A stretch of DNA of 64,000 nucleotides from a virus. The translations under genes and the position numbers were made by a program. The notes beneath the pieces are model-generated. The model had not been told where the DNA came from. It worked only from the letters and a program-made list of their open reading frames with translations, and did not search any database. Positions 1 through 60,841 of this stretch are shown here, piece after piece (position 1 is the stretch's first letter; every line of letters starts with the position of its first letter). The stretch is from IMG/VR virus record IMGVR_UViG_3300009183_000083, positions 5,810 through 69,809 of that record. One strand, given 5' to 3'.

Positions 1-8
1 GCAATTCA

Positions 9-476
9 TTATTTGTGATTTTGAACGTCACAAACTACTGAATAAGAAACCTTTTTCACAACTTTACAGGTTGGTGTACTCATACCACTTCTTGTGTATT
101 TTGCTGCGATTGTGAAATTTAGATTCTCAAATACACTTTCTACTTCAAGTGTGCATTCTGTCATAGGATCACCTTCAGTATCGCAAAACGACTCTTTAGA
201 AAACTTTGGCTCGCCTAAATCCAAACTCATTATCCATTCCATTGATTCTTCACGATTGTCAAATGACTTGCTGTAATGGATGTCTGTACTGCCATAAGCC
301 CACCAACCGCCACCGTACTTCTCACGAAATCTTTTGACAATTGGATCCATTTCAATTAGCAAAACTTCGCGTCTTAAGCTTTCAACTCGATAACTGTTTT
401 CACCGAATAGTTTTCCAAGAGCGTTTAGTGCTTGTTCTACTGTTACTTCTGTTTCGTTTTCGTATTCTGCTGTCAT
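9..476 (-). CDS. hypothetical early protein
   Basis: 155-aa ORF with an A/C-rich leader, in the minus-strand gene run. Confidence 0.7.
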   Translation of the reverse strand: MTAEYENETEVTVEQALNALGKLFGENSYRVESLRREVLLIEMDPIVKRFREKYGGGWWAYGSTDIHYSKSFDNREESMEWIMSLDLGEPKFSKESFCDTEGDPMTECTLEVESVFENLNFTIAAKYTRSGMSTPTCKVVKKVSYSVVCDVQNHK

Positions 477-506
477 GTTTTTGTTTGTATTGATTAAGAC
501 AATTAT

Positions 507-526
507 TTCCCAAGCCCGAAGGGCTT
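507..526 (-). promoter_or_regulatory. CCC-GAA-GGG triloop hairpin, candidate promoter element
   Basis: + strand TTCCC-AAGCCC-GAA-GGGCTT; near-identical copy at 60294-60313 with a compensatory outer pair. Confidence 0.5.
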
Positions 527-543
527 AGATGATTGATATAAAT

Positions 544-582
544 AAAAAAACTCCGACGACTTGACATCGTAAAGCACGGAGG
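544..582 (-). terminator. probable intrinsic terminator
   Basis: minus strand CTCCG...CGGAG stem followed by T7. Confidence 0.5.
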
Positions 583-660
583 TTATTAGTTGATCGGATG
601 CGCTTCTACACCCGCCTGCAATGTCCAGCAGGTCCGTTTGTCTTCTTGGGGAAGATTGTT

Positions 661-885
661 TTAGCGTTTAAGTATTGTAATCTTTTGGATTTTTTCCGCA
701 TTTGCATCAGGGTAATACCTTTGTGCTGCTTCAAGGCACTTTTCTACTGATGACGCGGCGATTACAAACTTATCTCGCTCGTTTGTGCCAATCATAGTTC
801 CAAACCATTCTAATTCTGTTTTTTTAGAATAGCTTTTATTATTTATGATCGGGATATATGCAGGTGTCGTGTCCATAACATTCAT
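661..885 (-). CDS. small hypothetical protein (start uncertain)
   Basis: short ORF co-oriented with its neighbours. Confidence 0.4.
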   Translation of the reverse strand: MNVMDTTPAYIPIINNKSYSKKTELEWFGTMIGTNERDKFVIAASSVEKCLEAAQRYYPDANAEKIQKITILKR

Positions 886-1020
886 TGATGCTTTTTGACA
901 GCTTTTTGTATTTTGTGTTCATTTCCATGATTGCTATTTGTATTAACAATAATGAAAAGCTAGTCACTGAGAATGCTGCGCCTACTATGATTGATGTGCT
1001 CATATTTTTTTGGGCATTAC

Positions 1021-1180
1021 CCCCATTTCTCGCCTCCGGGAAGCTTCTCCGTCAATAGACTCGCTTGTCCACATATCACGAAGCGTGATCAGCGCTTATG
1101 CCAAGGTGGATTTAAAAGGTCTGGCACATTAAAGCTTTTAACCTTATCGCTATCTACGTCTTCGGAGACGAGAAATGGAG
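1021..1180 (-). ncRNA. structured RNA: long closing stem around a pistol-ribozyme-like fold
   Basis: CTCCATTTCTCGTCTCCG pairs with CGGAGGCGAGAAATGGGG; inside are P1 AAGGT/ACCTT, a TTAAA linker, TCCAC/GTGGA, pseudoknot TGTGCCAG/TTGGCATA, GCG and ATCAC/GTGAT. Confidence 0.55.
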
Positions 1181-1211
1181 TGCCAGTATTACGCCTCTGG
1201 CAGTGCGTTTT

Positions 1212-1379
1212 TTAGTACAAATGACCTGCGTACTTGAGTTTTTTCCCTCCTGTGCGTTTGTGTAGCTCTTTACGGGCTTGCTTAATATCTTTGTGGAATT
1301 GAAGCATTTCTTTATGCGCGTTCCACTTTTTTTCTTCGTCTTTGCCGCTTGGCTGAAAGTTGTTTTGAAATTTTTCCAT
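1212..1379 (-). CDS. small basic hypothetical protein (55 aa)
   Basis: translated by hand: MEKFQNNFQPSGKDEEKKWNAHK...; ATCAATC-ATG leader. Confidence 0.55.
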   Translation of the reverse strand: MEKFQNNFQPSGKDEEKKWNAHKEMLQFHKDIKQARKELHKRTGGKKLKYAGHLY

Positions 1380-1397
1380 GATTGATTGTGTTTAGGT

Positions 1398-1448
1398 TTA
1401 GCTACGTTTCCAGTAGCCAGGGACGTAGTAGTAGGTTTCTGTGTGCAT
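1398..1448 (-). CDS. putative 16-aa micropeptide MHTETYYYVPGYWKRS
   Basis: same ATCAATC-ATG leader as the adjacent gene. Confidence 0.3.
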   Translation of the reverse strand: MHTETYYYVPGYWKRS

Positions 1449-1469
1449 GATTGATATGATTGATACGGT

Positions 1470-1512
1470 TAAAAAAAGGGAGCAGGACGCTTAACCGAAG
1501 TCAAGCGCCCTG
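1470..1512 (-). terminator. intrinsic terminator
   Basis: CAGGGCGCTTGAC-TTCG-GTTAAGCGTCCTG hairpin followed by a T-run, just after the 1523 stop. Confidence 0.65.
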
Positions 1513-1522
1513 TGTGTGTGTT

Positions 1523-1966
1523 TTAGAATTCGATTGCGACTTCTTTTGTATTGAAGAAACTATCTAAGTCATTGTAATCAACGTCTTCAGCTGCGACTGT
1601 GGAGATTGGATTAACATAGCTTACTTTTGCTTGTGTACGTCCATTATATTCTTCGTACTCAACTCGTACTGAGCAAGCTTGTCCTACGATGCTTTGCACA
1701 TCTTTGAAGGACTTCAGACCGAACGAAGCTTCTAGCTGTGAAGCCGTGTTTGCTGTACCTGCTAGGCTGGTGCAGTACATATTGTGTGTGACTTGACGCT
1801 CCGCAAGCTCGAGTTCTAGCTCAACGCTTAATTTGCCGTTTCGGTTTCTTGTCATTTGCGCGTTAAGGACACGTGCGCGGTGGTTTCCCGCTTTTAGCAT
1901 TTTGCTAATAGGGGTTAATAACGGTGGGGTTGTTTCAGTCATTGTTTCAGTTTCTGTAGTATTCAT
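1523..1966 (-). CDS. putative OB-fold ssDNA-binding protein (DUF669-like)
   Basis: G.HRARV...IVGQACSVRVEYEEYNG..AKV pattern and acidic tail ending in F. Confidence 0.6.
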   Translation of the reverse strand: MNTTETETMTETTPPLLTPISKMLKAGNHRARVLNAQMTRNRNGKLSVELELELAERQVTHNMYCTSLAGTANTASQLEASFGLKSFKDVQSIVGQACSVRVEYEEYNGRTQAKVSYVNPISTVAAEDVDYNDLDSFFNTKEVAIEF

Positions 1967-2034
1967 ATTTATTAGTTATTAGATTTTGTGAGGTGATCGA
2001 CTTGTGTTGTCGACCACCTTCTTACGTTTATCTC

Positions 2035-3780
2035 TCAAGCGCGAAGCGCTTCTTCAAACGCTCTTGAGAACGCTAATTCGATGCTCAGTGTTCCGGCTTT
2101 GATGGAGCGTAACACCTGACCCTTGCGGGCTTCGCGCTGGCGTTTTGCTTCTACTTTGGGTGACAAGCCGTAGCTCCACGAGTAGCGGCGGCTTGGGGCG
2201 GTTCCCATGGGATGTCCGTTTTTCCATTCGTGGCTGGTTGTTGTCATATCTGGCATTTTGTCAAGCTCTCGGATGATCGGACGCTCTATTTCGTTTGATG
2301 GCGAGTTACACGCTCCGGCGATGATCGCAGGGATCATCTTGGCGTGGTTCTCGCTTGACATGCACATCATTCGATTGGAGTTGTTTGGATACCAGTAGGT
2401 GACGAGGTGGTTAGTTTTGCTGTTACCGACAAACTTGTTCCACATTGTGTTGAGGCGTTTTAGCCTGACTAAATGTTGCTCTAAGTTTTGGATGATTTGG
2501 AGCGTTTTGTCGTCAATTTCTTCTAGCGCTTTCATTTTACGGATGGTCTTTTCCGTTCGCAGAATACCTTTATGGAGGTAGTCGTTGACGAACTGGGAGG
2601 ATTCTAAGTCTCCAAGTGTGATGCCAGCTTCTGATCGTTCAGTTACTGCTGAACAAGCTTGGAATAGCTCCATTTCTTCGTCGTCTTCGCAATATTTGGT
2701 GAAGTCTATGAATGTTTCGTCAGTTTCCCGTTGTGGGAACATTGTCAGGAACTCTTCTTCCTCGTTCATAAACTCAACCACTTCATTGTTTTCATCTGTA
2801 ACTGCCAAGTCGCTGCTTTCGCAGAGTAATTTGTAGTCAAGCTGGGACAGTGTGAGCGGTTTTTCGCCCTCTACAGGCATTTGCGTAAGCTCGTCGTTAC
2901 TGTCCAGCCAGTAACTTGATGGTGTGCATTTTGGGTTTGCTCTCCAGCCAACATATACTACCCACACGCTACCTGACCATATACTGGTGTAGCTTGGGAG
3001 GTATTGGTAGCAGAGTTCTTTTTCTCCATGTGAGTTGGTTTGCTCGAGCATTTCTGCTCCCAACAGTATGTTTAATATTGCTGTGTCACCACCGCGCATT
3101 ACGATGTTAAGTCTAGCCGCTATGTTCTGCATTGCTACGCTTGGGTATTTGTTTAGTTTAGGATTAAACTTTTCAGTTTTAGCTCCTAAATTTACTATTT
3201 TTCCACATGGCAATTTGATTGCGTAGTAGGCTGGTGAGTGACCTCTATCTTCTTGTGGCGGTAGTTCGTGTACTGTTGCGTCAATCCATTTGTATCCTTT
3301 ATCAGTTATCACTTTCTTAGCTATTACTTTTTCGCCGTAATGGCTGGCGTTCTGTAATTTATTTTGTTCTAGTTTCCAAGCCTTGCGGCTTTTAACTTTA
3401 TCGATGGCGTAGACCGCTGCGGACAAGCGGTCTTCAATACTTACTAAGCCTTCTTTCGAGGCGTTGATGAGTTTCTTTTCATCATCTGGCAGAAATCGAC
3501 CGAAGTTTCGGTAGATCATCATCTTTTGTTGCCATACTGCATTTGCTAATGCTCTGCGATCAGCGAATGAACTTAGTTCATCCGCAACTGTTGACATTAT
3601 TGGATCGTTTGAAACTACTTCCAATAGTGGTTTGATTGGGTTTATTAGGGGTTTCGTGAAATTGTTTTGCATTGCTGCAATCAGCTCTTCACGAGCTATC
3701 ATCATATCAAGTGGAGTGGTTTCTGTCACTCCCATTGTTTCTATGCTAGCGTTTGCGTAGGTCGCCACCGAGTTAGTCAT
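2035..3780 (-). CDS. large hypothetical protein
   Basis: 581-aa ORF; no recognised motif. Confidence 0.8.
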   Translation of the reverse strand: MTNSVATYANASIETMGVTETTPLDMMIAREELIAAMQNNFTKPLINPIKPLLEVVSNDPIMSTVADELSSFADRRALANAVWQQKMMIYRNFGRFLPDDEKKLINASKEGLVSIEDRLSAAVYAIDKVKSRKAWKLEQNKLQNASHYGEKVIAKKVITDKGYKWIDATVHELPPQEDRGHSPAYYAIKLPCGKIVNLGAKTEKFNPKLNKYPSVAMQNIAARLNIVMRGGDTAILNILLGAEMLEQTNSHGEKELCYQYLPSYTSIWSGSVWVVYVGWRANPKCTPSSYWLDSNDELTQMPVEGEKPLTLSQLDYKLLCESSDLAVTDENNEVVEFMNEEEEFLTMFPQRETDETFIDFTKYCEDDEEMELFQACSAVTERSEAGITLGDLESSQFVNDYLHKGILRTEKTIRKMKALEEIDDKTLQIIQNLEQHLVRLKRLNTMWNKFVGNSKTNHLVTYWYPNNSNRMMCMSSENHAKMIPAIIAGACNSPSNEIERPIIRELDKMPDMTTTSHEWKNGHPMGTAPSRRYSWSYGLSPKVEAKRQREARKGQVLRSIKAGTLSIELAFSRAFEEALRA

Positions 3781-4015
3781 TAGTTTGTAGTATTTTTTTC
3801 ACTAGCGCGAAGCGCTCAACGCAGAACGGGTCAGCCGTCGTGTTCCACAGCACAATTTGCCGTGGTTGGGCTTCGAACTCGTAATGCTTTGCTTTGGCCA
3901 CAATGGCTTCCATCTCGTTGCGGACCTTGGTGAGGGCTACAACGTTGTTCGGCGCATCAAACGCCATCATGGGGATCTCGTCAGTCGAGTCCCAGCTTGC
4001 TGTAATTACATACAT
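3773..4015 (-). CDS. hypothetical protein
   Basis: 80-aa ORF overlapping the start of the next gene. Confidence 0.65.
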   Translation of the reverse strand: MYVITASWDSTDEIPMMAFDAPNNVVALTKVRNEMEAIVAKAKHYEFEAQPRQIVLWNTTADPFCVERFALVKKILQTND

Positions 4016-4039
4016 ATTTTTGTGTTTTCTATTATTAGT

Positions 4040-4366
4040 TTATTTGGCTTTTTGAGCAAGTTTTTGGATTGTTTCGCAGTGGCATCGTTTTGGCGCACAG
4101 AAGCAGTAGAGCGCAACTTTTTTGCCTTCTGATACTCGCAAGCCGATGCGTGCGATAATCGGTAGGTGTGGGTGAGCGTCCGAAAGCTTCAAATCGTTCT
4201 CGTAAGCATCGCACACTGCATCACGCTGACTTTCGTCGCGCATCCAGTGTGGATTGCCAAGATTAGCGAACACTAGGTCTGTGCGCTTGCACGAGCCTTT
4301 ACGTCCGCAATATAGGTGCAAGTCAGCCTGCACGTTGGCTTCAGATACATGGTGTATGGTGATCAT
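4040..4366 (-). CDS. DUF4326-family protein
   Basis: YCGR...LGNP...RDAVCDAY...LYCFCAPKRCHCETI signature. Confidence 0.8.
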   Translation of the reverse strand: MITIHHVSEANVQADLHLYCGRKGSCKRTDLVFANLGNPHWMRDESQRDAVCDAYENDLKLSDAHPHLPIIARIGLRVSEGKKVALYCFCAPKRCHCETIQKLAQKAK

Positions 4367-4384
4367 TGGATTGTGTGTTGTTTT

Positions 4385-4789: not shown

Positions 4790-4790
4790 A

Positions 4791-5150: not shown

Positions 5151-5230
5151 ATCATTAGTTTATTTAGCCACTCTACGCGTGTTGGCATTACGCTCTTGAC
5201 TACCTAGTCAAAAAAGCTTTATCTGTCGTC

Positions 5231-15269: not shown

Positions 15270-15460
15270 CCTTTTGAACTCAATAACTAAGCGAGTTCAA
15301 AAGGAAGTCTTAGTTCGGCCGCTCGTCCGTCATCAGTTCTAGAAAGCATCCGTTGAGCATCACGCATTTATGCGTAGCTCTGTTTTCCATTCTGGCATAA
15401 ACAATAAAGCAAGCATGCTTTAGCCTGACTAAAAATAAACTTTAATAACAAACCAAAATT

Positions 15461-17357: not shown

Positions 17358-17379
17358 GTCTTTTTAGTCAGGCTAAGTT

Positions 17380-37177: not shown

Positions 37178-40100
37178 ATGCTTATTGATAAATCAAGTTA
37201 TTCTTCGGATAACAAATTACCAGAAGAAGAAGAAGAAGTACATCCATTAGCCTCTGAACTTGGAAGGCATTATCTTTTATCAGAAGATTACGTATATGGT
37301 GACGATAAAAAACTTGTAGCCAATCAGGCTTTTATGCACTGGGCTTCTGATCAAGAAGCTGAAAAAAAAGGAACAGTTAAAGCAACTGGTTATGAAAAAA
37401 ACGATGCTGGTGTTTTAGAAAAGGTTGAAAAAGATTTTCCTATGTTTAATGGGGAAAGTTTGACTTCTAAAGGACAAGAAGAATACGAGAAGGTTAAAAG
37501 GTATTTTGATGACGCTGCTTCTATGCCAAATGGAGGAGTGTCTCGTAATCCAACAACTCGCAAGTGGGAAGTGGATAGTCGCCTTGAGTCTGTTTTTACA
37601 GAAAAACAAGAAAAGCGTCCTGATCCATTTAAGGACATGTCGGAGTTTATTGATGAACAACTTAAAGTTACTAAGGAAGGTGATAGTCCCGCTTACACTT
37701 ACGAAGACTTTACTAACTTTTCTAACGCTGTAGTAAAGAACGGCGAAGCTCACCTTGATCCAAATAACAAGGAAATGAAAGCTCGCTTTTTACAAGAAGT
37801 GAATCGTCGTACATTTGATTCTTCTTTAATGGATGAAGCTGAAATTGGTCAGAAAGTAGCTGGAGCTTATGTAATCAACCCTAAAAATTACAGTGAAGTA
37901 GACAAAGTTGAAAGTTGGATTGAGGGCTTAACAGATCTAAGTGCTTCTGATAAGAAGATGATGCTTATTGATTATCGTTCTAAAATTGAAGCAAATGTTG
38001 GTACTTTAGTTAATGATTTTGCCGCTGCTGATGCTGGAGTGATTGGCGGTATTTTTAGTTCTCCTCTTCGTGATGAGTTTAATGAATACATGAGCAAGCC
38101 AGGAGCTAGTGGTTATCAATTTCTTAAAGAGAACAAAGAGCGAATGAGCAAAGACTCATATGGCGTTACGTCTGAAATTGCTACTAAATTTCGAGACTCA
38201 GTAATGGCTACCGGAACTGGTTTTTTATGGGCGGCGAGCGCTGGCAACTACACCAGCCCTGCGGAAGCGTGGGGTGGCTTGGCCGAGGATTCGTCCAAAG
38301 CATATTCAAATGGCAAGGCGTTCGAACTTTTTGGAGTCGACATCAACCGCCGTGATTTAACCGAGCTAACCGGACAGGTCGGGTCGTTTATTGCAATGGG
38401 TGGAATGGGCGCTTTAGCAGGTAAAGGATTGACCGCAATTGGTGCTCAAGGAGCTTCACGTTATGCTGTTAATGAAGCCGGGATTTTGCTTTCTACTGTA
38501 GCTAAAACAGAAGCAGCCGCTGCTGCTGGCACTAGAACTTTTGGACAAAAAACTTTAGCCGGACTAAAAGCGGCTGGGACTGATCCAGAAATGTATCTTG
38601 GATCGCTTCAAGCTGCTGGAACGTCTTTTGGAAAAACTTTTAATTCAACACTTGAAGAAACAGGAAGTCGTGAAGAAGCACTTAAGGCAGCAAACATTGC
38701 TGCAATATCAGATGGTTTTTCAGCTTTTATTGCAACAGGTGTGATGAACCGTTTTGCTCCAGGCATGGGCAAAGTGCTAGGAATGGGAGATGGCGAAGTA
38801 GGTGGTGGTATTGTTCAAGCATTTAAAAATAAAGCTTTAGCTAAAGAGTCGATGGAGCAAGTCCAGACATTGCTTAACAACCTTGATGGAAAAATTGGAG
38901 AACCGCTTCGCAAGCAATTTGCTAATGACATTGGAAGTGTGATGGGTGCTTCTGCACGTTCTCTTGGTTTAAAAGGAATTGGTATTTTTGGAAATATGGG
39001 AGCTGAAGCAATTGAAGAAGCTTCAGATGAAATTATTTCTGATGTTATTAGTTCGATGCTTGATGATTCTAAAACTTGGAACGAAGAAGTTTGGCAAAAC
39101 ATTGGGACCAAGTGGAAAGAATATGTTAAGGCGGGGGTGCTTGGTGCAATTGGTGGAGCAATGGGTGATGCTACATCAACAGTACTTAGTCCAAAAGAAA
39201 CATTTGGAACTAGCGAGGGACTTAAACTTCAAACTCAAGAATGGGACAGAATTAAAACTAATGTAAAAAAGTTTGACTCTATGGAGAATTTTGTTTTCCC
39301 AGCTCCTATTCAAGATGCAAAGAATCTTGCTGAGTATATTGCAATGCCTGATGACAAAGTTTCAATAGAACAAAAGTCAGATGCGTTGTTAGCGGCAGTT
39401 CGTAATAAGACTTTATTTACAAGCATGGTTAACGCCAATGTGCCTGTAGCCGATCCTAGTAGTGTTCCTGAGCCAAGTGTCACAGTTGACGCTGAAGGCG
39501 CACCTATAGCTAGCGACGCAGCAAAACAAGCCACTTCAGCTAGTGTGTTTGCTACAGTTATGTCAAACTCAGGTTTAGTTTTACCTGAGGGTCGTGTTTG
39601 GCGTGATGACATTTCATTTGCCCCAACTGAAGGAAGTTCTCCACTAAGTATATCTAATAATGTTAAAATCACACCATTGTCTACTGTAGCTGATGGAGAC
39701 AGAACAGATCATGTTACTTATGTAGCGGCAAAAAAAGAAACAACAAATCCAAATGGATCAGTTACCACTGAGTATTTAAGCGCAAAAGAAGCTGCTGCTG
39801 AATTAGGAACAGCAATGTCTAGTCTCAGTTCAAAGAATAGAACTAAAGCAAATAATTTAGTTAACAACTTTCTCAGCAAATCAACTAATACTAACTATAA
39901 TGAACAATGGTCAACTGAAGTTCAAAAAGAACAAGGAGCTTCTTCTTCTGAACCTAATTTAACAACAGAATCTAAACTGTCATCAAGCATAGAAGGTGTA
40001 CCACTAGATGTTGGGTCGGAAGTAAAATGGGAAAGCTCAAATGGTAATGGTCCGCGCAGTGGTAAAATTATATCTATTGACGCAGCAAGTGGTATGGCTG

Positions 40101-43100
40101 TTGTGCAAATGCCAGATGGAAAAGCTCGTGACGTTCCCGTTAAGGCCTTTAGTCAGGCTGAAACTCCAACTGTAGCGGAGGGCGCTCTTATTTCCTCTCA
40201 AAACCAATCTCCTGGAATAAAAAAACAACAAACAATAATAAAAAATGAACAACAAGAAAATGATGCCAATGATGGGAGCAATGATGAAGCCATCAGCAAA
40301 GCCGAAAGCGATGCCGAAAAAGATGGCGAAATCAATGCCGAAAAAGATGGCGAAGAAAAAGATGTGTTAAGTGAATCAGGAGCTGCTGGGGAAACATCTC
40401 CAGCAGCTTCTTCTAGTAGCGTTAATAATCGCATTAAAATCAGAAATCGGCTCAAAGGAGTTAAAAACACAGAGCCTCTTGTTAACAAAGAAAACGATCG
40501 CTTTTACAAATCAGACGGAGGAATTTATGTTTCTAAAGGAAAAGATCCCGTAACCTATGTTACCGACGATGAAATTGATGCTGAGATTGAAAGACAGGGT
40601 GGCAATCTAAATAATGCCCTTAAAGTGATCAACGATAAGATCACAAAAATGGGCGGTAATATTAACGCTTATGCTTTAGACATACAAGAGAAGACAGCGG
40701 AAAATGCCACTTCATTAACTTATCAAGACGTAACTTACGTTGCTGACCCTAGTCTTATTCAAGATGGAACTGATGCAATTGGCGGCAAGTGGATGATGAT
40801 AACTAACGAGAAGACTGGTGTTGTGTCTTATACTTATCGTCCACCTACTGGAAGCGCGTTATCATTAGGAATTGGTGAAGTTGTAGCAATTGATGGAAAA
40901 CCTGACGAATTCTTAGTAGTAAAACGAGTATTCAATGGTCGATGGGATTTTGAAAAAAAGGATGCTAAAGACGCAGCTGGAGACATTATCAATGATAAAG
41001 GCTTAACTCAAGAAGGAAACAAATTTACTCGTTCTCGTTTATCTTTAATTTCCAAAGAATTTGAAAAACATTTTGAGTCAATTGTTAATGGAAAAATTAA
41101 TCCAGAACAAATGGAGAAATTATTTCTTAAAGTATTGAAAATTGTTTCTCCTAAAAAAGATTTTGTTGTTGTCAATAAAGACATGTCTGAAGAAAAAGGT
41201 TATGTTTACGCAAGCCGAAACAATGAGAATCCAGATGATTTTGGTTCAATCAATGTAGACTATAAGAAGCTGTCTGAGCAACTTTCTCAACTTTATCGTA
41301 CAGCTAATACTAAAAATAAATTTTCTAATGCTCTTCTTGGAATGGATGCAGCAAGAGTTGTTTCTGCTATTATTGATGAAGAACTCACTCACTTAATTGG
41401 ATTTAAGATTTTTGACGATGCTGAACTTTTTTCGTTTTACAGATCTATTCTTGATCTTCCAAAAAACAAAGATGGTACTGAGCATCCATTCAAACAAATT
41501 CTTTTAGAAACTTTAACTGAGCGGTTTCCTCAAAGACAAGGTTTGCCTGCGTTAAGCCCCGAGATTGATGGGTTTGATGAAGGTACAGTAGGTGATGCTG
41601 ATAACATGGATGAGATTGTCCTGACAGTGGCAACAGAAATGATTCGTAAGCTTCATCAGATGGCAACACGCGGAACTACCACAGAACGCGATACAGAGCT
41701 TTCTAGACAGCTTCAGGCTGCGATTTATGGTGACGCTGCTGCTAAGTCCCAAGAAACTGCTGAATCAAAGGTGAAGGGGCCTTTAAACGTCATTGGTCAA
41801 ATAATTAGGCGTTACGCTGAACGTGTTCGCAATATCCTTTGGATGAAGTGGCAACAAGGGATGCTACCACGAAACACTCGTGATATGCTTACAAGATTAA
41901 ACAAAGCTTATCAAAACGAAGGGATTCAAGGTGATGTAGACTTTGGTTATGACGCTGCGATGGAAGAATCAGAGCGCCGAGTAGAACAGTATGAGAAATC
42001 TTTTATTGATGAAACTAGCAAAATTGCAAGGATTTCTAATCCTGCAATGATGAAGCTTCGATCAATAAGCAGGGAGTTTGGTTACATGTCTCTTGGTGAA
42101 TCCCTAGTAGTTGACAAAGACACAATGACGCTTTCTCTTCATCCAAAAATCATGCAACACATTAAGGATAATAACTTAATGGACTTGGATTTGGTAAATA
42201 AAGTTTTGTTTGAATTAAATGGTGAGGGTGTCAGCACTCCATCTTATCAAAAAGCAGTTACTGTAGCTTTTCTAAAGCAGCAAGTTATGGATTTAAAGCG
42301 TGATAAACTTACGTTTAATCCTTCTGATTTGTTTGACTCAATGAAAAATGATGAGGGGTTATTTGGTAATCAAGCAAAAGATGCTAAGTCTGCAAAGCAT
42401 TCTGTTTTATGGAGACAAATTCTTGAAGGCATTCCAGAAAACAACTTTGAAGCATCACTAAAAGAAGTTGTCTCACCATTAGTTTCTGAGCGAAACGAGA
42501 TGTGGAAAGAACGTGATCGTTTGCATGGATTAGTTATTCAAGAAGCATTTAAGGCAGTTAACGCAATTGATACAGATTTGGGTGGGTTCTCTTCAATTAA
42601 AGCGTTAATTAAATGGGGTCGCTTGGCTCAAGTCAAACGACCTGGAAAAAGAGAATTAGTTGATATTTTTGATGATTTTACATTTCCTAGCGAGCAATGG
42701 TTTGAATATCAATCTCCTGCAGATAAGTTAATTAATGCAACTCCAGAAGAATCAGCGCAGGTGCGTCGTGATTTCAAGCAATCCATACTTCAATCGCTGG
42801 CTCTTTCTCTTCCTTCAATTACCGGAGAAAGTCATGTTAAATTTTTAGAGTCTATTGGTGGTCCTGTTTCAGAAGCTTTAGCCGAACTAAAGAGTACGGA
42901 AAAATCTTTAGAAACTATAACTCAATATATTGAAACAATTAAGTATTATAATAAATTCAATCACTTTATTCCAGGAATGGACCCTAAGGATAGGGATCAG
43001 CTTAAGACTGCAATGTCTGCAGAACGTAACGCGCGAAGCCCGAAAAAAAGTGGGCTACCTATAAATGATGAAAATAATGTTCTTCAGCGTCAGCAACCGC

Positions 43101-46100
43101 TTTCACCTGAAGCGCAAGCTGCTTCGTTTTCTATTTATCAAGAATACATTGAGTTTTCTCGCGCTGTAGATGACTACAACAAATCTATTCAATTTGTAAA
43201 GAACCGAGCATTGGGTGAGTTTGGTACACGTTCTGAGGAGTTTGGAATGAATTATGCAGACATGAATAAAGCAACTGGCAACAACGCTACGCTTGAGTTT
43301 AAAAGCATGACTGACGAACTTCAGCCTGCTAGTACGCCTAATGATGTATTTAGCGGAAATATGATTCCAGAAGGAATGAAATATGGTTACGGGTCAATAG
43401 CTCGTTTTGATGATAATGGAGAACCACTTTCAGAAGAAGAACAGGCATGGAACGCTGGACTAGAAGTTTATCGTTACACAATGCAATCAAACGCTGATTT
43501 TGTTGGCAAAAATTTATTTTTAAACTACTGGGTTAATCTTCAACTTGGGAAAGTTGTTTTGTCTGGTGTTGCTAGTGACTACGAAAAAACAGGAGGATTC
43601 TTATTTAAAAGACAAGTTAACGAAATTGAAATGGTAGATTACGAAACTGCTGATCAAGCGTTTCCTGACTTACCAACTGAAGAGCTTGGAGAAGCAAAGA
43701 TGAAACTTAAGTCTGGCGGCGCAGAAGACATTCTTAATGTTATGCGTTTTTTCCAAAAGGTTAACGTATGGGCAAGCGGAATTAAAAGCAAGTATCAAGG
43801 AGTTACGACAGATGAAGTTGGTGGAGAGCAAGGTTTTGCTGGTCGCATGATTCCAATGCTTAATGAATTATTTGGAAAGATGGAAAGCATGATTGATCCA
43901 ATTAGTGGAGAGTCATTTATTGGACTTACTGAAGGATTGGATTTTGATTTAAAAGCACACGTTGAAGACGTAATAAAGTTTTTAAGTCGTCATTACGAGA
44001 TGAAGGATTTTTACACAAGATCTGGTAGTTTTGTTATGCCTACAGAAGAAGTAAAAGACTTTATGGACTTCTTTAAAATGAAGGACGGCAAGTTAATTAA
44101 AATTTCATCACGTAAAGACAATCAAATTGCTAATGATTTTTCTGGTGTGCTTTTAAATTCAGGCAAAAAACTTAAGGTTTCATTACGCAGCGCTACCCAA
44201 GGTGTTAAATTAATGAAACGTTCTTTTAAAGCGTTTAGTAACCCTCGCTGGAAGCGTAACGTTGAACAAGAAGGTAGTCGTTATCAACGTGATCCTGCAT
44301 ATGAACCAGACAATAAAGCTATTCTAAAGCTCGGAGAAATGACGGCAGATGCCCGAATGAGAAATCAGATGAAGTGGAATTTAAAATATTTTGAAACTAG
44401 CCGTAATTACATTTTTGGTTCTAATTGGGCATTTGAATTTTACAATGATATTCAACGAAGCAGTTATGGAGAAGGACGAGAGCCTTATGTAAAAATCAAA
44501 GCTTCAAGCATAAGTGCTAATAGAGATATAACATTAAATGAAATGTTTGATCCTAATCGGTGGACCCTTGAAAGACCTAAAGGATTTATTCCTAATCAAC
44601 AAGATTACAACGATTCTTTATATTTTGGTGTCGGAAAAGAAACAAGAAGAGTAACAGATACTAATCTTTATTTAAATCCAGAAAGCGAAGTAATTAATCC
44701 AAACGAGTATTCCGGAAGCGAAGATGATCCTCGTGTTGCTAATTCTAGCATGTCTACTACAGACCCTACGGTTAGGGGGTACACTCAAACTTATAACGAA
44801 GGTCGTGCTTCAACACCACAGGAAACTGCTCAAAGGGCTTTTGGACGTTCTGCAGTTTCCCGGTCGATTAAAATAACTCAAGCGGCTATGTTCATAGGCA
44901 GCAATGGTCCAAGCGGACGTTCATCGTCAGACGCAGATCAATTTTATTTTGACATGATTCGTCTTGGAAGAGACAACGATTGGTTTACATCAGAAAACAT
45001 TATTGAAGAACGCAATCGTTCAAGTAATAACGTGTTTTTTGCTGATTTGACAAATGATGAAATTGATAGCATGGATAATCGTCAGATTATGACGGTTTTT
45101 CGTCAATCTATGACTGACAGTCTTGTTCGTCGTGGATTAAAAGGATTGTTTCCAGCTTTAGATTACACAAATGATGAAACTCATAACAAGATTTACGATG
45201 CGTTTCTTGATGAATACGGAAACAAAACAGACAAAAACGGTAAGTATTTTTTTATTGATTCAGAAAAGTTTATTTTAGATTTGCTTGAGTTTAAGATGAA
45301 GTTTGAACGGGCAGTTGTAGAAGAAAACCGTGTTAAGAATCAAGATGACATTGCTATAGCTTACGATTTAATTTCTAAAGGAAATCAATTTGTATCTCCT
45401 AATGAGTCTGAGCGCATGGCTAAAGCCATCAAGGAGTCAATGACGAGTGAAAAATTTAATATTTTTGATACTCGTCTTGGTACTGGGCTTGGAACAGGAA
45501 ATGCAATTGTGGATCATTTAATTGATACGCTTCCAGGCAGAACACTAATTGTTGAAATTCGTTCTGATGTTGCAGATGCAAACGATTTAAAGGGACTTAA
45601 CATTCAAGTATTTAAAGGCAATCAAAAACAAGGTGAGGCAATCACTCCGAATGTTGTTTTTATGCCATTAAATCAAAATGGTCCATATCTTTCCAAAGAC
45701 AAAGCAAGAAGTTTAATTAGCCAGTTACTCAGCATATCGGCTGAAAACAACTTAGTAGTTAAAAAAACGCTTCTTGATCTTTCTGCTAAGATTGATGCTG
45801 AATTAAAGCCAGTTCAGTTGGCTGATGGTCTTGTAATTAGCTATCGTTCTAAACCAAAAAAGAAAACGTTTTTTCCTAAAAATCGTTACATTTTTGATGC
45901 TTTTGACAAAATGGCGGCAATCCGATCTGATTTTGACATTGTTTCAAAAAGCTTATCTTTTCCTGGCGTTGATCCAAACTTGGTAGACGCAATTATTATG
46001 GTTTCTGCATTTCTTACTAACGATGATGCTAAAACATTTCTTGATCAATCTTATAAAGGATTTGAAGTTCGCGTTTCAAGCAATTTGCCGCAGCAAATAC

Positions 46101-49100
46101 AAGATGATCTACTTCATTCAATTTGGATGATTCGTCAAAGCAAACTTTATGAAACTAATCGTTTTGGAGATGAGACAGAAAACCTTGAATCAAACGATAA
46201 TAACAACGAAGAAAATGAAATTGATGATGAGGAAGAGTTTCCTGATCCAGACAAAGATGTAGACAATTCTGACCCATCTCAAGAACTTGATGATTCACTT
46301 GAAAAAAGTGAAGAAGCTAATAATTTTTTTGCTGACAATGTTATTCCTGAACTTGAAAAAAAGATAGCTGAGATTGAAGATGGCAAATTAGAAATTGAAA
46401 TGGTAATTGCTTCTGCTGATTTTGGTGTAAACGATGCAAGCGATATACTGCTTTATAATGCTCTTGCTTCAATTGTTGAGGCTGGAATAAAACGTGAAAG
46501 TTTGGAAGTTGTTAAAGGTCTTCAGGAAAGATATTCTAACAAGGGCCGCAAGGCTAGAAGCACTCGTGATATTCTGGCTAATCCTAAATTAGGTGGACAG
46601 TCAGGTAATCTTCGCGCTGATCTTGCTGCTCCAGTAGTTAAATCTAATGCAAAAGAGGATGAAGAGGTTGGGTTTTCACAAACAAAAATGAGTTTTGCTG
46701 TTAAAACTTATATTGGAGAAGCAATTAATATGGCTCGTCCAAACGTAAAAAATAGAACCGTTTTGAATTCTGAATTTGCTTCCACTAGGATTAATAATAT
46801 AAACGCTGCTTTAATTTACAGTTTAAGCAGTGTTGAAAATCAAGTTGAAGAACAACTTACTAGGTCTTTTAAATCAGCTCTTGGGGCTGTTGCAAAAATA
46901 AATTTTAGAAGCAATACAAAAAACGGAACTTTGGATTCTGTTAAGATTTCTAGCCAAAAAATTGAAGTTGTTGTTAATGATGAGCTTCTTTCTGAATTAG
47001 GAAGAAACTTGCCAGCAGCTGAATTAGAAGTTGCTTTGAGTCAGACTCGAAAAGCAGTTGAAGATTTATTTGTAAGCAAAGATAGATTTGAAACTATTTT
47101 AGCTTCTTTAAAAGAAGATCGCGCTAATGCAGTAGTTCTTAATTCAAAAAATGTTGCTGAATACTGGGCTAATACACCTACATCAATTCCTGATGCAACA
47201 GGAAAACGTAAAGGCAAAAAAGTTTCAAATGACGAGTTAAGCAACGCAATGAGCAAAGAGAATGTTGAATTAGCAAGAGCTAAGTCTGCAGCTCTTGTTG
47301 ATAAGTTGCGTGTAATTGATCGCCAAATTAATCGCGTCCAAGATGATCTACTTGCAGTAAAACGTGAGATTTCTAAAATTGAAAATTATCGCGGTCAAAC
47401 TGTTTTAGGTCGTTCACATTTTAAAGCTAATATTGGATTAGACATTCTTAAAAATGAAGAAGGCACACAGATTTCTGCTGCGGTAGAAGAGGCTACACGT
47501 AAAGTTGGATTTAATATTATTACTACTCCGTTTTTTGGCTCAATTGACGAACGTGCTCGCTGGATGGACACATCTTCTGATAACGCAATAGCTGATGTTG
47601 AAATCAAAGAACTTCGAAAAGAACATTACATTAAAGAACAGGCAATGATTTCTGCTTTAACGCAGTTAGCAACTGATCACATTGATGATGCTTATAAGAT
47701 TTCTAGAAACACAGCGGATAATTTTATGGATTTTAATCCGCTTAAAGCAATTCGCCAAGCAATTGAGATTTCCAACGTTGAATCAATTGTTTTGAAAGAT
47801 CAAATGAAGATGGCAAGAACTGAAGCTGAAAGTGCCATGATGAGAGGGTTGGAGGCTGACGATATTGCAATGTTGACTGACCCCGCTTCAACTAATTTAA
47901 TGGTGATGACGTTTGCTGATCAAGCAAAACTTACTCCACAAGAAAAAACAGGCAAAACAATTTTAACACCTAATCAATACACTAGATTACGTATTTTAAA
48001 CATGCCTAAGAGCATGACAGAAAGAAGTAAGAAGATTGGAGCGCTATTTAGTCAGGAAGGCCAAAACGCAATCTTAATGCCTACTACAGTGAAGGAGCAG
48101 CTTATGAGGGCATTTCCTATGACTGTAACAAAAAGGAACGTAAACAGCACTATAACACAGATAGTAGCTGAAGCAGCGGCTTTGTCTCAGAATGTCTCAC
48201 TTGATTCAATGCGTCATTCCGAACTGGAAGCCAAGCATAACGATGGAACGATTACTCCTGAGGAGACAGAAACGGCTCAAAAACTTGTATATGAGGCAGC
48301 TGATAAAAAGGGGTATGACCAAAAAGGACATAGAGCAGGAGTGTATAAAAATGGAATTCCACTCCTACCAAGCACAACTGGTGGTTTGGGGTCTGCTTAT
48401 TATGCTATTTTGGGAGGTTCTCTCGAGGAAATTAAAGAGTTTGGTGGGGAGATTTTGGGCCCTGACCGAAACAACCCGTCGATTAAAACAATAGCTGGTG
48501 AAGTGAGAATAAATCTTGGTGATAAACCTTTATTTGTTAAGCACCCCAGTGAGGTGTCAGAATGGGCTGATAAAAATAACCTTATTCCATCTTTTTATGC
48601 TTGGTTGAATTACCAACAAGCAGTCAATTCAGTTTATGATACCATCTATAAGGGTCAAAATAAAACAGATTGGAATGCGCCTACACGTCGTATAGACGTT
48701 AATCCAAACAGTCTTGAAGCCAGAAGAGCAGGACGCTTATACATAGAAACTGCTGAAAGCAAAAAAGAATACCGAGATGCCCTAATTAAAGATGGGTATT
48801 CAGAAAAGGACATTGACCGAATGAGGCTGAATGAAGACACGGTAGGAACTTCTGATGCTGCTAAGTTGAATTCTTTCTTGTTTGATCAAGGTCATGTTAC
48901 TGCAATCGTAGCAGATTGGTCTGGAGCTGCAAAAAATAAGAGAGCTTCGGGTGATGGACGTATGTTCACCGAGGTTGCATTAGCAAATCCAGATCAAATC
49001 AAATCCGCAGAACCCTTCACTGGAGTTCCTTTGGATCAAAGGTTTAACCCACAAAGTCATAGCATTGCTTACGCTGCCAATCTTGATTCACGCCCGATTT

Positions 49101-52100
49101 TAAACATCCGTTCTTCTGTTCGAAAAGCATTAGAGGATTCTGGTTTTTCGTTTAGCGATAATTTTGATGATGTTCAAGCTAGCAAGATTGCTCGCGTTGT
49201 TACAAAACGGTTGCGTGGAACTCGTGACACCAGCCCGGAATTTATTTTAGATGGTTCTGAAGCATTATCGTATTTAGTTTACGAACAACTTGGTCTTCCT
49301 GAGCGAGATCAAGCTGGCCGAGAATCAATTCAAAAAGCTATCGCTTCGTGGATGGAAACAGGTAAAGATCCAAAGAATATTGATAAGTCACTTTGGCAGA
49401 AGGTGCTTGAAGTTATTGAACGCATTAGTTCGTTATGGAATGGATCTAAATTCCAATCTATTGAAAAAGCTCTTTCAAGCGAACTCAATCAAATCGAAAT
49501 GGGGAACAAGAATTACTTCTTGTCTCCTGCTGTTGGTCGTTCAAAAATAAGTTTCCAAGGTATTGTCAATCGCAATCCAGACGCCGTTGGGGTGATGAAC
49601 TACCTTCAAGATCAAGGAATTGATTTTATACTTACTGGAAGCTTTGCTTACGCCGATCAAGTGTCAATTTATCGTAGCGCCGATAAGCCTGTGCATGATG
49701 TTGATCTAATTTTAAAGAGCGGAACGGTTGATTTAGCTGCAGACAAACTAAAGAATCATTACACTACCGCTAATCTTTACGACTTTCATCCCCGTAAAGG
49801 CGAGGCATCCCGCATCAATGGAATTATTGTTGTTCCAAAATCTCAACAAATAACTAACCTCATAACTCGTTGGGTAAAAACGCGAAATGGCTTTGAACCA
49901 TTACGTTCGTATGATGTTATCGACAACGTGACTGGTAATAAAGTAGGGTCTTATAAGTTTTCTCCATCTGGTGAAGTTTCAGATAATGCTGGAGTAATAC
50001 TTGATTTAATTGAGCACAAACCCGGTGTTGAGCGAGAGTTTGTAAATCAATCATTTCAAGATGGGTCTGACAACAATCGCACCATCAAGGTAAGTAATTA
50101 TGTTTCTGGATTTGTTCACAAGCTGGAGCTTCTTCGCTATAAGGATTTGCGAGACTTTAGAATGGCTCGTCCAGCGAACACTGAGGGTTCTGCTGTTTTG
50201 GATTCCACAACTCAATCGGTCAATAATCAGGGTCAAGGAATTGCTTATGCTGCAAACCTCAACCCAACAGATCATTCTTATTTCATGAACTCTATGGAGA
50301 GCTTGAAAAAAGAAACATTTTCTGGCGACGAGTTTAGCCTAACTAAAGGCAAAACAATGACTAAAGAAGAAGCGGCTAAAGCATTTTCAACTGAGTTTGC
50401 TAATAAGGTTAAAGTGTTTCTTAATACAATTCGTAATAATGGAGATGTAAACGGAAAGAAAGTTTTTGATTCTAATGGCCCTCTTTATCAAGCACAAATT
50501 GAAGAATTTTCCTTCATGCTTGAAGGAATGGTAATGGCTTACAACGACTCAGCCGGGGTGTTAAAAAAGGAAACAAAAGATGCGGTAAGAACTTTATTAA
50601 AAAGCATTAGTGAAAACAATGAAGGATCTTTTTCTTTTATTTCAGAAAGACAGTCATTTGGTATTGATATTAACACTGAAAACATGGTTAACTTTAGGAT
50701 TCCAAAAGTGTTTTCAAGTGTTTTTATGGATGTTGAAACCGATTTGATTGTTAAGCGTCTTACTTCATCTATGACTATTCATAATGGATGGGCATCATTG
50801 TTTACAATGAAGTATCTTGATCATCATGACTCTCGTATGCGCAATCGTTTTCAGAAAAACCGCGCTGGTCGACAAGCGGCACTTCATTTGAAAAACATTC
50901 TTGATCGAGGCGTGAGCGGCAAAAGCGGACGTTCAGCTTACGAAACGCGAAAAAAAGCAGCTCAAGAAGAAATTGCTCAAGCTGCAAAAAAACTTGATAA
51001 TAATGCTTTAGATCAAACTATTGGATATTTTCATGCAATGCTTGATGGTCTTGATAACGCTAATGGCATGACCTATGTTAACGCATTCAACTCTTGGTTT
51101 AATCAAATAAAACGTGGTTTTGATCAATATAATGAGTTGGTAAAAGAAGTAGATAGTTATTACGATAAAAACGAAATTTCAAAATATTGGGATGCTAATC
51201 ACATTGATTTACGTCGTGACAAAGAATTAACTGATAAGATCAAAGAGATATTAAATAGTGCTAAAGCAACATCTGATTTCATTGATGAATCTAAAGCAAG
51301 AGAAGCGGTAGAGCGAATTCAAAAAGCGTTAATAGATAATGTTACTAAAGGTAAAGAAGCAGATGTGCTTAATTATTCTACAACTGTATCTAGAGTTTTA
51401 GGTGATATTGATAGTGCAATGCATTTAACAATGGCAATGCTTTCTCAGCCTTCTGATCCACGAATAGATTCTGAAAAAAACAAATGGAATAATCGTGAAG
51501 TTAAAGGATATAAGCGAACCTATTCATCTGTTCCAATGATTATTGGATATGCTGGCAACCCTAAAAGCAAGGTTCCAATTAAACAAGGTGAATACATTTC
51601 TGATGCTATGGATATTGTAGCGTTTGATAGGTCTTCATTTTTTGGCGGTGTCGGTCATTCCTCACAGCGCTTTGACGATAAAAGTGTATTTCGACCTATT
51701 TTTGTTAATGGAGTGATGGCTCCACAATCTTTAATTGATGATGCTATTTATCGTCTTAACGTAACTCCAACTTATGAAGTGCTTCGTCGTTCGCTTGGAA
51801 AGGTTAAAGACACATCTGGACAACTTGGTATTGAAGATAGCGGTATTCTTGAAATTGTTCAGTCTCAAGTTCCTGATATTAATTTGCCAACTCAGGATTA
51901 CAATGAACAGAAGCACAATCATGACATGGAAGTTGATGCGACAACTACAGCTTTGGCTTTTGTCGCAAACGAATTAGAAACTACAATACGAAATGACTAT
52001 CAAACTGGTGTAGTAAATACTGGTGGTGCAGAAATATTGAGATTTTTAGGTTCAACGTTTATTGTAAGATCTTTAGCATCATTACAACAGATTACTGACC

Positions 52101-59240: not shown

Positions 59241-60248
59241 TTAAGCTGTCAGAGCAACATCTTTGCTGATCATAGCATTTCCTCGACGAACATTATTGTC
59301 CCAGTCGCTAACAAAATTACTTGCTACCATGCTTTTGACTTGAGCAGAAGACCCAAATTCGCTTGTATAGCTTTGTGCTCCATCGCCTTTGCGATTAGTG
59401 CTTTCATTAGAGTGGAAGTCAGTAAGAGCAGAGAATGCGTCAAGACGAGTGCGACCTTCATTGCCACGACCCACTTCGAACAATTCCATGATCCTGGCGC
59501 TCTTCTGAAGCATACCATTAGTCAATTGATCACTGTTACGAGTTTCGATGCCTGCTACCCATGCGCGCGCCTCATCACGGCTACAAGGGGTGTTCTGTGC
59601 CGTTGTAAGCATAGCCTGAAACTTCGCTGAGGTTCCAGAAAAATTATCAATAGCGTCAATTAGTCGGCCAATGTTCATTTCAATCATTTGCGTGTGCTTT
59701 GCTTTGCCGATTTGAGAACCAGTATGCATGTTTGCAGCAAACGTATTGGAACAAACAACACAGATATTTGAATACCGAGCTTGTAACGAAGTACTTTTAT
59801 CATACGAATCAAGAATAGTGATAAAGTCCTTGAATTCGCGATCACCAATGCGAAAACCTTCACTTACTTTGATGGAGGCAAAGACCTTGCAGCGATTATC
59901 AACAGTGCCTGCTGACATAATTTCATACGGTGTGTCTCCCATACCTTTCCGAATGATTTCCCAGAACGTCGCGATTGAAGACGGGCAGTATGAAGATCCA
60001 TAAGGGTCTCCAATTGGTAAGAAGTCATCAGAGGCAATGAGTTGCTTCCAATTAGGGCTTTCGATAAATGTGTCTTGGTTGACTCCAAAATCATCTTTTT
60101 CAGTAATTTTGTGGTAAATAGGTGATTCAATAATTTCAAATGGATGTGCAATCTTTTGGGTGATTGGACCATCTTCAATGATTGTCATATTGTGCCATGC
60201 TTGGCTTTTTCCTACTTGTTTGTCTCTTTCTGTGATTCCTGCTGGCAT
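59241..60248 (-). CDS. DUF932-family protein
   Basis: AWH, SAG......VF, DSYD.STS......VVCSNT and KHT motifs. Confidence 0.85.
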   Translation of the reverse strand: MPAGITERDKQVGKSQAWHNMTIIEDGPITQKIAHPFEIIESPIYHKITEKDDFGVNQDTFIESPNWKQLIASDDFLPIGDPYGSSYCPSSIATFWEIIRKGMGDTPYEIMSAGTVDNRCKVFASIKVSEGFRIGDREFKDFITILDSYDKSTSLQARYSNICVVCSNTFAANMHTGSQIGKAKHTQMIEMNIGRLIDAIDNFSGTSAKFQAMLTTAQNTPCSRDEARAWVAGIETRNSDQLTNGMLQKSARIMELFEVGRGNEGRTRLDAFSALTDFHSNESTNRKGDGAQSYTSEFGSSAQVKSMVASNFVSDWDNNVRRGNAMISKDVALTA

Positions 60249-60337: not shown

Positions 60338-60841
60338 TTATTTCGCTGTGGCATTTTTTGCAGACGATGAAATGTATTCAATCCCTCGATGCAAAGCCTC
60401 AACGGAATCTTTTATACATCCTAAGAATTGATTACACTTAGCGCATAGTAATCCTCTGACTTTATTTGATGAGTGGCAATGATCAACATGCAGTAAGTAG
60501 GTCATTTCTTGTGAGTCTTTATGGCATATAGCGCATTTGAAGTTTTGTTTTTTTAGTAGGTCGTCATAGTCTTTGAGTGTTATCCCATAGCGACATTTTA
60601 ATACGTATCCACGTTGTTTAATCCACTCTTTGCCGGGATTAAGCACTCTAGAACGATCAATTTTGAGCCGTTCTAAATCCTTTAGAACTTTTCTTTTTTC
60701 TGGGTTGTTTCTGACCCATTCTCGAACTGATACAGCTCGACATTTTTTGCACCAACTACTGATTCCATTGGCTCGACCTCGGTCTTTTGACATTTCTTCA
60801 TTTGTGCATAAGGCTTTACATTTCGTGCAAGTGTTATTCAT
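60338..60841 (-). CDS. endonuclease VII-family protein
   Basis: RYGIT..DY..L...Q..KCAIC...LHVDHCH....VRGLLC..CN..LG. Confidence 0.9.
   Translation of the reverse strand: MNNTCTKCKALCTNEEMSKDRGRANGISSWCKKCRAVSVREWVRNNPEKRKVLKDLERLKIDRSRVLNPGKEWIKQRGYVLKCRYGITLKDYDDLLKKQNFKCAICHKDSQEMTYLLHVDHCHSSNKVRGLLCAKCNQFLGCIKDSVEALHRGIEYISSSAKNATAK

Follow-up and report, generated by a model that had tools for sequence, protein, structure and literature searches.

Short hairpins with a three-nucleotide loop recur at gene junctions in the genome of a virus and in those of its relatives, and they constitute a real, structured element that is conserved in about ten lineages, strand-specific and confined to non-structural genes. 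By analogy with the early promoters of phage N4, we tentatively favour the reading, which we consider quite possible, that these hairpins are class-specific start signals for the modules that serve replication and recombination and for further non-structural ones, and act as N4-like template-strand DNA hairpins. The N4 promoter family itself does not include them: two of its defining features are absent and no cognate enzyme was found.

The window, meaning the whole stretch of DNA analysed here, comprises 64 kb (bases 5810-69809) of the 69,809-bp virus record IMGVR_UViG_3300009183_000083, which is rated 100% complete and in which a terminal repeat was not detected. Structural genes occupy the plus strand from window position ~8484 to 53500, and non-structural genes occupy the minus strand on both sides of this block (window 9-5150 and 53497-63970, plus the 5.8 kb before the window). 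The recognizable non-structural proteins are a Toprim primase/helicase, a DUF932 protein, an Endonuclease VII-domain protein, an HNH protein, ERF, a PD-(D/E)XK nuclease, an OB-fold protein and DUF4326. Start codons are preceded by A-rich leaders without Shine-Dalgarno sites. Five genes recur in the account below:

9..476, minus strand: 155-aa gene, downstream of hairpin copy 1; no family match
2035..3780, minus strand: 581-aa gene; no domain and no fold match
37178..53500, plus strand: 5440-aa ORF, last gene of the structural block; considered as virion polymerase, with negative result
59241..60248, minus strand: DUF932 gene, which opens a module reaching the primase/helicase (55510-57354)
60338..60841, minus strand: Endonuclease VII-domain gene, upstream of hairpin copy 2

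Neither megablast of 10.5 kb of the window nor tblastn of the 581-aa protein gave any match among GenBank phages, a search of IMG/VR found no relative of the 155-aa gene, and Rfam at gathering thresholds together with a tRNA scan of the window returned nothing. Because TerL has only weak terminase matches and the primase/helicase is only ~30% identical to the proteins of many phages, we conclude that the window phage has no cultured relative. Ten sequencing runs contain the phage in small shares each, and their metadata state only freshwater or lake, which gives no firm evidence for such a habitat. Four contigs from one lake-water metatranscriptome library are identical to early-gene sequence of the window (1-38, 214-433, 1641-1792 and 3531-3726), and thus the same phage was present in that lake sample; the contigs are short, lie inside early genes and give neither transcript ends nor strands, and DNA carry-over is possible. 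Between 5738 and 8330 the window has a higher GC content (0.51), C and G runs and only small ORFs, two of which are on the early strand and conserved, one encoding a 52-aa hydrophobic protein.

Hairpin copies in the genome and among its relatives

A sequence-only reading of the window had described three template-strand hairpins with a GAA triloop, and all three are genuine. The plus strand carries TATTTCCC-AAGCCC-GAA-GGGCTT at 504-526 and TACTTCCC-CAGCCC-GAA-GGGCTG at 60291-60313, with a compensatory change (A-T to C-G) in the outer stem pair between the two. Their downstream leaders on the minus strand (GGGAAATAATTGT vs GGGAAGTAAGTGT) are as that reading gave them, as are the minus-strand ATGs that lie 35 nt (at 476) and 50 nt (at 60248) downstream, and the third stem, TAACCC-GAA-GGGTTA at 5977-5991, does lack the flanking CCC. 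The count was incomplete, however, since two copies in the window (2037-2051 and 3804-3816) had been missed and the whole genome holds six:

504..526, minus strand: hairpin copy 1, sense AAGCCC-TTC-GGGCTT (512-526), then GGGAAATA (504-511); 30.1 bits
2037..2051, minus strand: hairpin copy, AAGCGC-TTC-GCGCTT, then GAGAGATAA; ATG at 1966, 70 nt downstream; 30.1 bits
3804..3816, minus strand: hairpin copy, AGCGC-TTC-GCGCT, then AGTGAA; 23 nt upstream of the 581-aa ATG (3780); 28.1 bits
5977..5991, minus strand: divergent copy, TAACCC-TTC-GGGTTA, then TCATCAC; 17.8 bits
60291..60313, minus strand: hairpin copy 2, sense CAGCCC-TTC-GGGCTG (60299-60313), then GGGAAGTA; 28.8 bits
Genome 2167-2181: sixth copy, outside the window

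These copies emerged from a whole-genome scan for perfect hairpins of at least 5 bp with the triloop TTC, TCC, GAA or GGA, and they lie at genome positions 2167, 6321 (window 512), 7846 (2037), 9613 (3804), 11786 (5977) and 66108 (60299). All six are closed by a C:G pair, are GC-rich, have stems of 5-6 bp and present a GAA or GGA loop on the plus strand, and the same scan found no C:G-closed copies in the opposite orientation. When the C-GRA-G / C-TYC-G class with at least five perfect pairs is counted, the genome contains six, all with GRA on the plus strand, vs a mean of 0.68 and a maximum of three (both orientations together) in 40 dinucleotide shuffles. Likewise, an 11-mer core with at most one mismatch occurs three times in the window, vs 0.34 expected, a number reached in none of 100 shuffles. 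Chance is no explanation for this recurrence.

Every copy sits at a gene junction on the template strand of minus-strand non-structural genes and, with the exception of the divergent copy, 11-70 nt upstream of a start codon. The genes and modules that they precede are the 581-aa gene, a 147-aa gene, the 155-aa gene, an ERF/OB-fold module and the module that runs from DUF932 to the primase/helicase. Copy 2 lies 25 nt past the stop codon of the Endonuclease VII-domain gene and has syntenic copies in six of nine relatives, and the copy at 2037-2051 overlaps the stop codon of the 581-aa gene, after which relatives also carry syntenic copies. The divergent copy scores 17.8 bits vs 24-30 for the others, has a pyrimidine-rich flank, and lies between small early-strand ORFs and a convergent 168-aa gene; it is syntenic with a GACGC-TTC-GCGTC hairpin in two relatives (G001 and G004), where the flank is TC-rich.

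Relatives were gathered through two anchor genes, DUF932 and the 581-aa gene, which gave nine loci first, and the collection also includes five whole relative contigs (G001-G005, 39-57% GC) and extra loci from IMG/VR and metagenomes, of which the metagenome scan added only four. The hairpin class is present in all relatives collected. Across six genomes, 27 of the 29 perfect copies (at least 5 bp) are both within the non-structural block and in gene-sense orientation, and the two antisense copies both have AT-rich or weak stems; the structural genes of six genomes, totalling 196,010 bp with block limits drawn from naive ORF maps, contain no perfect copies. The hairpin is found upstream of the 581-aa gene in every lineage whose upstream flank was examined, and downstream of this gene wherever a contig extends past its 3' end.

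A covariance model of 27 nt was trained on 40 of 42 candidates, leaving out two AT-rich intragenic stems (L011:16002-16028 and L018:18971-18997). It gave 54 matches at E<=5 in 411,807 bases, and the top 42 are all on the early-gene strand. Training rows match the model by construction, and seven of the top 42 matches come from loci outside the training input: four have 27-mers that are new to the training set (L018 616, L018 6865, L022 13237 and L046 12129), and the other three duplicate training rows of close relatives. The model is usable for finding relatives. A scan of IMG/VR for the exact 19-mer (flank plus hairpin) gave no matches, and a sequence search of the literature, judged by title, found no published description of the motif.

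The hairpin might also be a replication signal in single-stranded DNA, such as a loading site for a primase or an initiator. All copies lie on one DNA strand, the genome encodes a Toprim primase/helicase, and the C-GAA-G / CC-GAA-GG core is shared with the complementary-strand origins of ssDNA phages and with ssiA, according to the available part of a 2026 review (PMC13037366). We nevertheless regard this function as improbable, given that the element sits precisely at gene junctions and keeps to the 5' end of particular genes from lineage to lineage, that two thirds of the genome is without it, and that the G-R-G-R flank would have no role.

Stem, loop and flank

The sense-strand consensus is A-AGCSC-TNC-GSGCT-N-G-R-G-R. 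Its outer pairs (A-G-C / G-C-T) mostly keep their sequence, and the fourth stem pair covaries, being C-G in 20, G-C in 16 and A-U in 3 of 40 rows, with one row shifted by MAFFT and counted as unpaired at this position. The covariation score is 0.288 vs 0.084 in shuffled alignments and the share of paired cells is 85.8% vs 74.1%, both values being reached in none of 500 shuffles, and pairing falls to 13-38% when the 3' partner is slid. The closing pair is C-G in 39 of 40 alignment rows and in 41 of the 42 best model matches. Among these 42 best matches the sense loops are TTC (29), TCC (10), TAC (1), TTT (1) and GTT (1), which on the template strand read GAA (29), GGA (10) and GTA (1) with two outliers. 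A G, corresponding to a template C, follows the sixth stem column in 41 of the 42 matches, and the next three bases are mostly purines.

Stems differ among lineages at the same genomic location. Upstream of the 581-aa gene the stem is AGCGC in the window, L041 and L047, AGCAC in G003 and L036, AAGGCC in L033, and GCCC in G001, G004, L028, L035, L045 and L046; after this gene it is AAGCGC, AGCGC, AGCAC, GCGCC or GCCC, depending on the lineage. One lineage carries the flipped stem GGGC-TTC-GCCC upstream of DUF932. These substitutions indicate that selection acts on the structure and not on the sequence of the stem.

The same pattern bears on the proposal that a dimeric regulator binds the palindrome as a double-stranded operator, which would suit a short perfect palindrome at regulatory positions. 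The half-site is free to vary if it remains paired, and the asymmetric loop is fixed and strictly oriented; the element is therefore a poor fit to a symmetric dimer site, and we consider an operator very unlikely.

A stronger rival holds that the hairpin acts as RNA in early transcripts that arise from a few other promoters, with the C-UNC-G triloop and the purine-rich tail forming a binding or cleavage site. Possible roles include intercistronic processing, protection of mRNA ends, translational control, and anti-termination by an early phage protein. In a syntenic copy at L022 13237-13263 the sense strand closes the loop with T.G. This pair becomes a C.A mismatch in the template DNA and is kept only as U.G, a state that is tolerable in RNA; one-mismatch hairpin scans are too noisy for G.U vs A.C, and for the pair just beyond the stem the G-rich flank is a confounder. 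However, the complement of the UNC triloop is a special DNA motif, since d(GCGNAGC) and d(CCGAAGG) fold into mini-hairpins of exceptional stability that contain a sheared G.A pair (as covered in the available part of PMC13037366). Furthermore, the RNA reading would leave to chance the exact match between the fixed bases and those on which DNA extrusion depends in N4, namely a loop-closing G:C pair with G at the 5' side and A at the 3' side of the loop (in the part of PMC4496689 that could be consulted). With the positional evidence given below, we judge the RNA-level role to be possible if somewhat doubtful.

Terminators, spacers and possible start signals

Three other hairpins in the early region of the window help to define the surroundings of the element:

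548..582, minus strand: terminator-like hairpin, followed by seven T (542-548); -9.9 kcal/mol, with a modest z-score of -1.1
1483-1512, minus strand: strong intrinsic terminator, 13-bp stem with a UUCG tetraloop; -22.2 kcal/mol, z-score -6.6
1991..2019, minus strand: larger 11-bp hairpin without a T-run, in the leader downstream of the 2037-2051 copy

The second of these, with its T-run 5 nt after the hairpin, is the clearest intrinsic terminator of the early region, and its tetraloop contrasts with the triloop of the element. Copy 1 lies ~22 nt past the T-run of the first. The 101-nt stretch that includes the third folds at -27.9 kcal/mol (z-score -4.1), and a second, larger and variable hairpin is often found 15-25 nt downstream of copies, in the leader, an arrangement compatible with a structured 5' leader as well as with a processing site.

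Could the element itself terminate or attenuate transcription of the upstream gene? Many copies abut the stop codon of that gene, such that a GC-rich hairpin stands right after stop codons, and the divergent copies (window 5977-5991 and the GACGC stems of G001 and G004) lie between convergent genes. None of the copies is followed by a T-run, however, and the flank is instead the purine-rich N-G-R-G-R; separate hairpin-plus-T-run elements exist, one of them just upstream of copy 1, and a scan for terminator-like sites lists other sites and none of the hairpin copies. In addition, the copy before the 581-aa gene occupies a divergent spacer in G003/L037, L036, L033 and G001, between this gene and the conserved, oppositely transcribed 168-aa gene, where no co-directional gene ends and there is nothing upstream to terminate. 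The window genome carries an insertion of four genes at this spacer, and the hairpin has been kept 23 nt from the 581-aa ATG. Late operons contain no copies. The divergent-spacer copies, the location of copy 1 after a T-run hairpin and the lack of T-runs thus argue against a terminator or a mere 3' stabilizer, and we hold termination to be highly improbable. The sequence-only reading had weighed a terminator or an RNA 5' stabilizer against its own promoter proposal: the first is opposed by the evidence of T-runs and divergent spacers, and an RNA-level role stays as a rival.

Several further aspects of position speak to that RNA-level role. The hairpin is always sense-oriented and is therefore always transcribed with the genes, the upstream stop codon is often abutted or overlapped, the second hairpin 15-25 nt on resembles the arrangement of processing sites and structured leaders, and a phage polymerase would be unnecessary. 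On the other side, generic stabilizers or processing sites would be expected in the 196 kb of late genes too, where there are none, and a host promoter would find room only in the ~22 nt between the T-run and copy 1.

The proposal that the hairpins are start signals also meets unusual placements, to which the frequent abutment of upstream stop codons adds. In G001, G004 and G005 a 6-bp copy falls within the coding sequence of a conserved protein, where it specifies QPSGL ~40 codons short of the stop codon, and because the divergent copies lie between convergent genes, a promoter there would make antisense RNA. In favour of the proposal, searches for conventional promoter sequences were negative: no motif is common to the 30-nt stretches that precede the copies, sigma-70-like sites are not enriched (5 vs 12.1 expected and 19 vs 26.8 expected), and no sense-oriented intergenic TAnnTTTG, the Bacteroidota-type -7 motif, was found in the non-structural blocks, where this sequence is present only as the reverse complement of start regions.

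Other sequences are repeated in this genome. A near-palindrome of 14-15 nt, TTTAGYCNGRCTAA(A), occurs at seven window sites, giving 13 both-strand matches vs 0.07 expected:

2459-2472, 15419-15432, 17363-17376, 35724-35737, 38554-38567, 54777-54790 and 59226-59239: near-palindrome TTTAGYCNGRCTAA(A)

A looser form yields tens of both-strand matches in each whole-contig relative despite their GC contents of 39-57%. The motif, which all relatives share, belongs to early as well as late modules. Its copies mostly end 2-4 nt ahead of a start codon, with the sense form TTTAGCCTGACTAAA, and a few lie within coding sequence, one of them conserved in the 581-aa gene. It is often just upstream of, or overlapping, a TNC hairpin. 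A literature sequence search did not find the 14-mer in print, and it resembles the start-associated sequences of some mycobacteriophages. The word (T)ATCAATCAT appears five to six times in ~1 kb (window ~530-540, 1000-1010, 1380-1390 and 1445-1470), with two of these occurrences directly following T-runs and several joined to an ATG. Finally, the 168-aa gene (window 5231-5737, plus strand) is conserved at 42-59% identity in relatives and opposes the surrounding early genes, and the spacer beside its start (5150-5231) holds a TTGAC...GTCAA-type palindrome in several lineages; together they look like a switch region.

Candidate enzymes and comparison with known systems

If the hairpins are promoters, then an enzyme or factor must read them. 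The sequence-only reading had found no RNA polymerase motifs in the window, which holds, and no RNA polymerase of known type was found in the whole genome either; the single-subunit enzyme that the reading suggested seeking in the rest of the genome was not found with Pfam, PHROGs, motif scans, hhalign or phmmer. Specifically, Pfam on 33 sequences and PHROGs on 16 (with the 5440-aa ORF divided into three pieces in each, and with part of the small ORFs covered) produced nothing polymerase-like. Scans of all six frames and of the giant proteins turned up neither a DxDGD or DFDxD motif that relatives conserve nor a motif B of the T7 type. The alignment of four giant proteins to N4 gp50 by hhalign had a probability of 0.4%, with a shallow profile, and phmmer vs PDB sequences gave no matches.

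The 5440-aa ORF was considered for the role of virion polymerase and gave no sign of one, having no Pfam, PHROG or PDB sequence match and no motif B, although this giant protein leaves room for a very divergent or new polymerase. Its counterparts in relatives have 4848-5788 aa and chiefly share an N-terminal block, a block at ~1340-1700 and the C-terminal ~1050 residues, the last being the most conserved part. In Atlas searches two parts of the ORF yielded nothing beyond leads to 'large polyvalent protein' domains, scoring 0.94-0.95 and <=0.80. Residues ~3670-4352, which are missing in one relative, hold a GS...DxD nucleotidyltransferase-like motif seen by eye.

The 581-aa protein belongs to a family of 63 homologues, many of which are on ~70-kb contigs, and has neither a Pfam domain nor a relative of solved structure. 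No member was found in species-representative bacterial genomes, and therefore the family gives no host clue. Its structure model reaches a pLDDT of 43.6 with 5 sequences and 71.0 with 61, Foldseek of the model vs PDB returned nothing at E<=0.001, and VIA-align returned only helical-hairpin matches (Z<=8.8, ~70 residues). This hairpin-bracketed protein and the ~5400-aa polyvalent-like protein are candidates for the polymerase or specificity factor.

Our preferred reading of the hairpins as DNA start signals would operate in the following manner. Under negative supercoiling or in single-stranded DNA, the palindrome of 13-15 nt would extrude and the template strand would fold into a C-GNA-G mini-hairpin of great stability. 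The hairpin structure, together with the fixed loop ends and the closing pair, might be recognized by a polymerase that the phage specifies or by a host polymerase that a phage factor redirects. RNA synthesis would then begin at the conserved template C two bases past the stem, to yield 5' ends rich in G and A (N-G-R-G-R). We infer by analogy with N4 that action is at the level of DNA rather than RNA, that transcription starts at the element, and which enzymes are candidates. The more ambitious formulation, that an uncultured freshwater lineage with no detectable protein kinship to Schitoviridae uses mini-hairpin promoters for its replication and recombination genes and reads them with a polymerase or factor of a novel type, we deem rather unlikely.

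If the start-signal reading is true, then a second, unrelated lineage would share the same loop chemistry and the hairpin-promoter solution would have arisen more than once. It would also point to an unrecognized transcription enzyme or factor in a phage group that is almost wholly unannotated. Even if the hairpin acts at the RNA level, the element marks the boundaries of early transcription units in a widespread freshwater phage group.

Several known elements resemble these hairpins in part. The RNase III sites of phage T7, an example of intercistronic processing hairpins in early operons of phages, are strand-specific structured elements between early genes and are formed by much longer irregular duplexes; they are alike in their strand-specific placement, whereas conservation here is limited to a 5-bp stem and its fixed triloop. 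The boxB hairpins of the lambda nut sites have a five-pair GC-rich stem and a fixed purine-rich pentaloop in RNA, are recognized in early transcripts and number about two per genome. Their stem size and fixed loop are alike, whereas the RNA loop here is UNC and there are five or six copies. The UNC triloop is not known to be a stable RNA motif, and to our knowledge promoters that are read as extruded DNA hairpins are known from N4-like phages only.

The crAss-like phage phi14:2 is similar in having a giant virion protein and a host that probably does not use Shine-Dalgarno sites, whereas its DFDxD catalytic motif is absent here. In the accessible text of its description (bioRxiv 10.1101/2020.03.07.982082), the phi14:2 virion polymerase prefers single-stranded templates and, according to the authors, early transcripts have no common upstream motif; this phage therefore offers no parallel for the hairpin element.

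In core sequence the hairpins match the origins of G4, ST-1 and alpha3 and the ssiA signal of RSF1010, whose core heptamers are identical to those on the template strand here. As described in the portion of PMC13037366 at hand, mini-hairpins of this kind are found at ssDNA phage origins, ssiA of RSF1010 and N4 early promoters. The G4, ST-1, alpha3 and ssiA signals prime replication on ssDNA, with one or two per replicon. In contrast, the hairpins described here are placed at junctions between genes of a single class and carry a purine-rich flank that is conserved.

The promoter comparison with N4, which the sequence-only reading had raised, survives with respect to strand, module, loop, covariation and position, and fails with respect to the polymerase, the -8G and the four-base spacer. 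The early promoters of N4 are template-strand hairpins whose polymerase reads the central purine, -10G, -8G and +1C, the remaining stem bases needing only to pair (as far as the available text of PMC4496689 describes). The position equivalent to -8G is the covarying pair here, with G in a minority of copies, and +1C, which in the N4 promoters covered by that source lies 5 nt from the stem after an A4 spacer and eight bases downstream of -8, has as its counterpart a template C 2 nt from a 5-bp stem. N4 promoter function further entails supercoil-driven extrusion, dependence on SSB and early transcription that resists rifampicin. The cognate N4 enzyme is a T7-like virion RNA polymerase in a giant virion protein, of which no homologue was detected here. 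The likenesses, again as far as the source describes N4, extend from architecture to sequence: both elements are template-strand hairpins with stems of 5-7 bp and a 3-nt loop, stand before early genes and occur in several copies. Both have a C:G closing pair and a loop with G at its 5' end, A at its 3' end and a central purine (GAA or GGA here), and the other stem bases are free if paired, as the covarying fourth pair illustrates here. N4 transcripts start on a template C, and a conserved template C lies just downstream of the hairpins of the present phage group.
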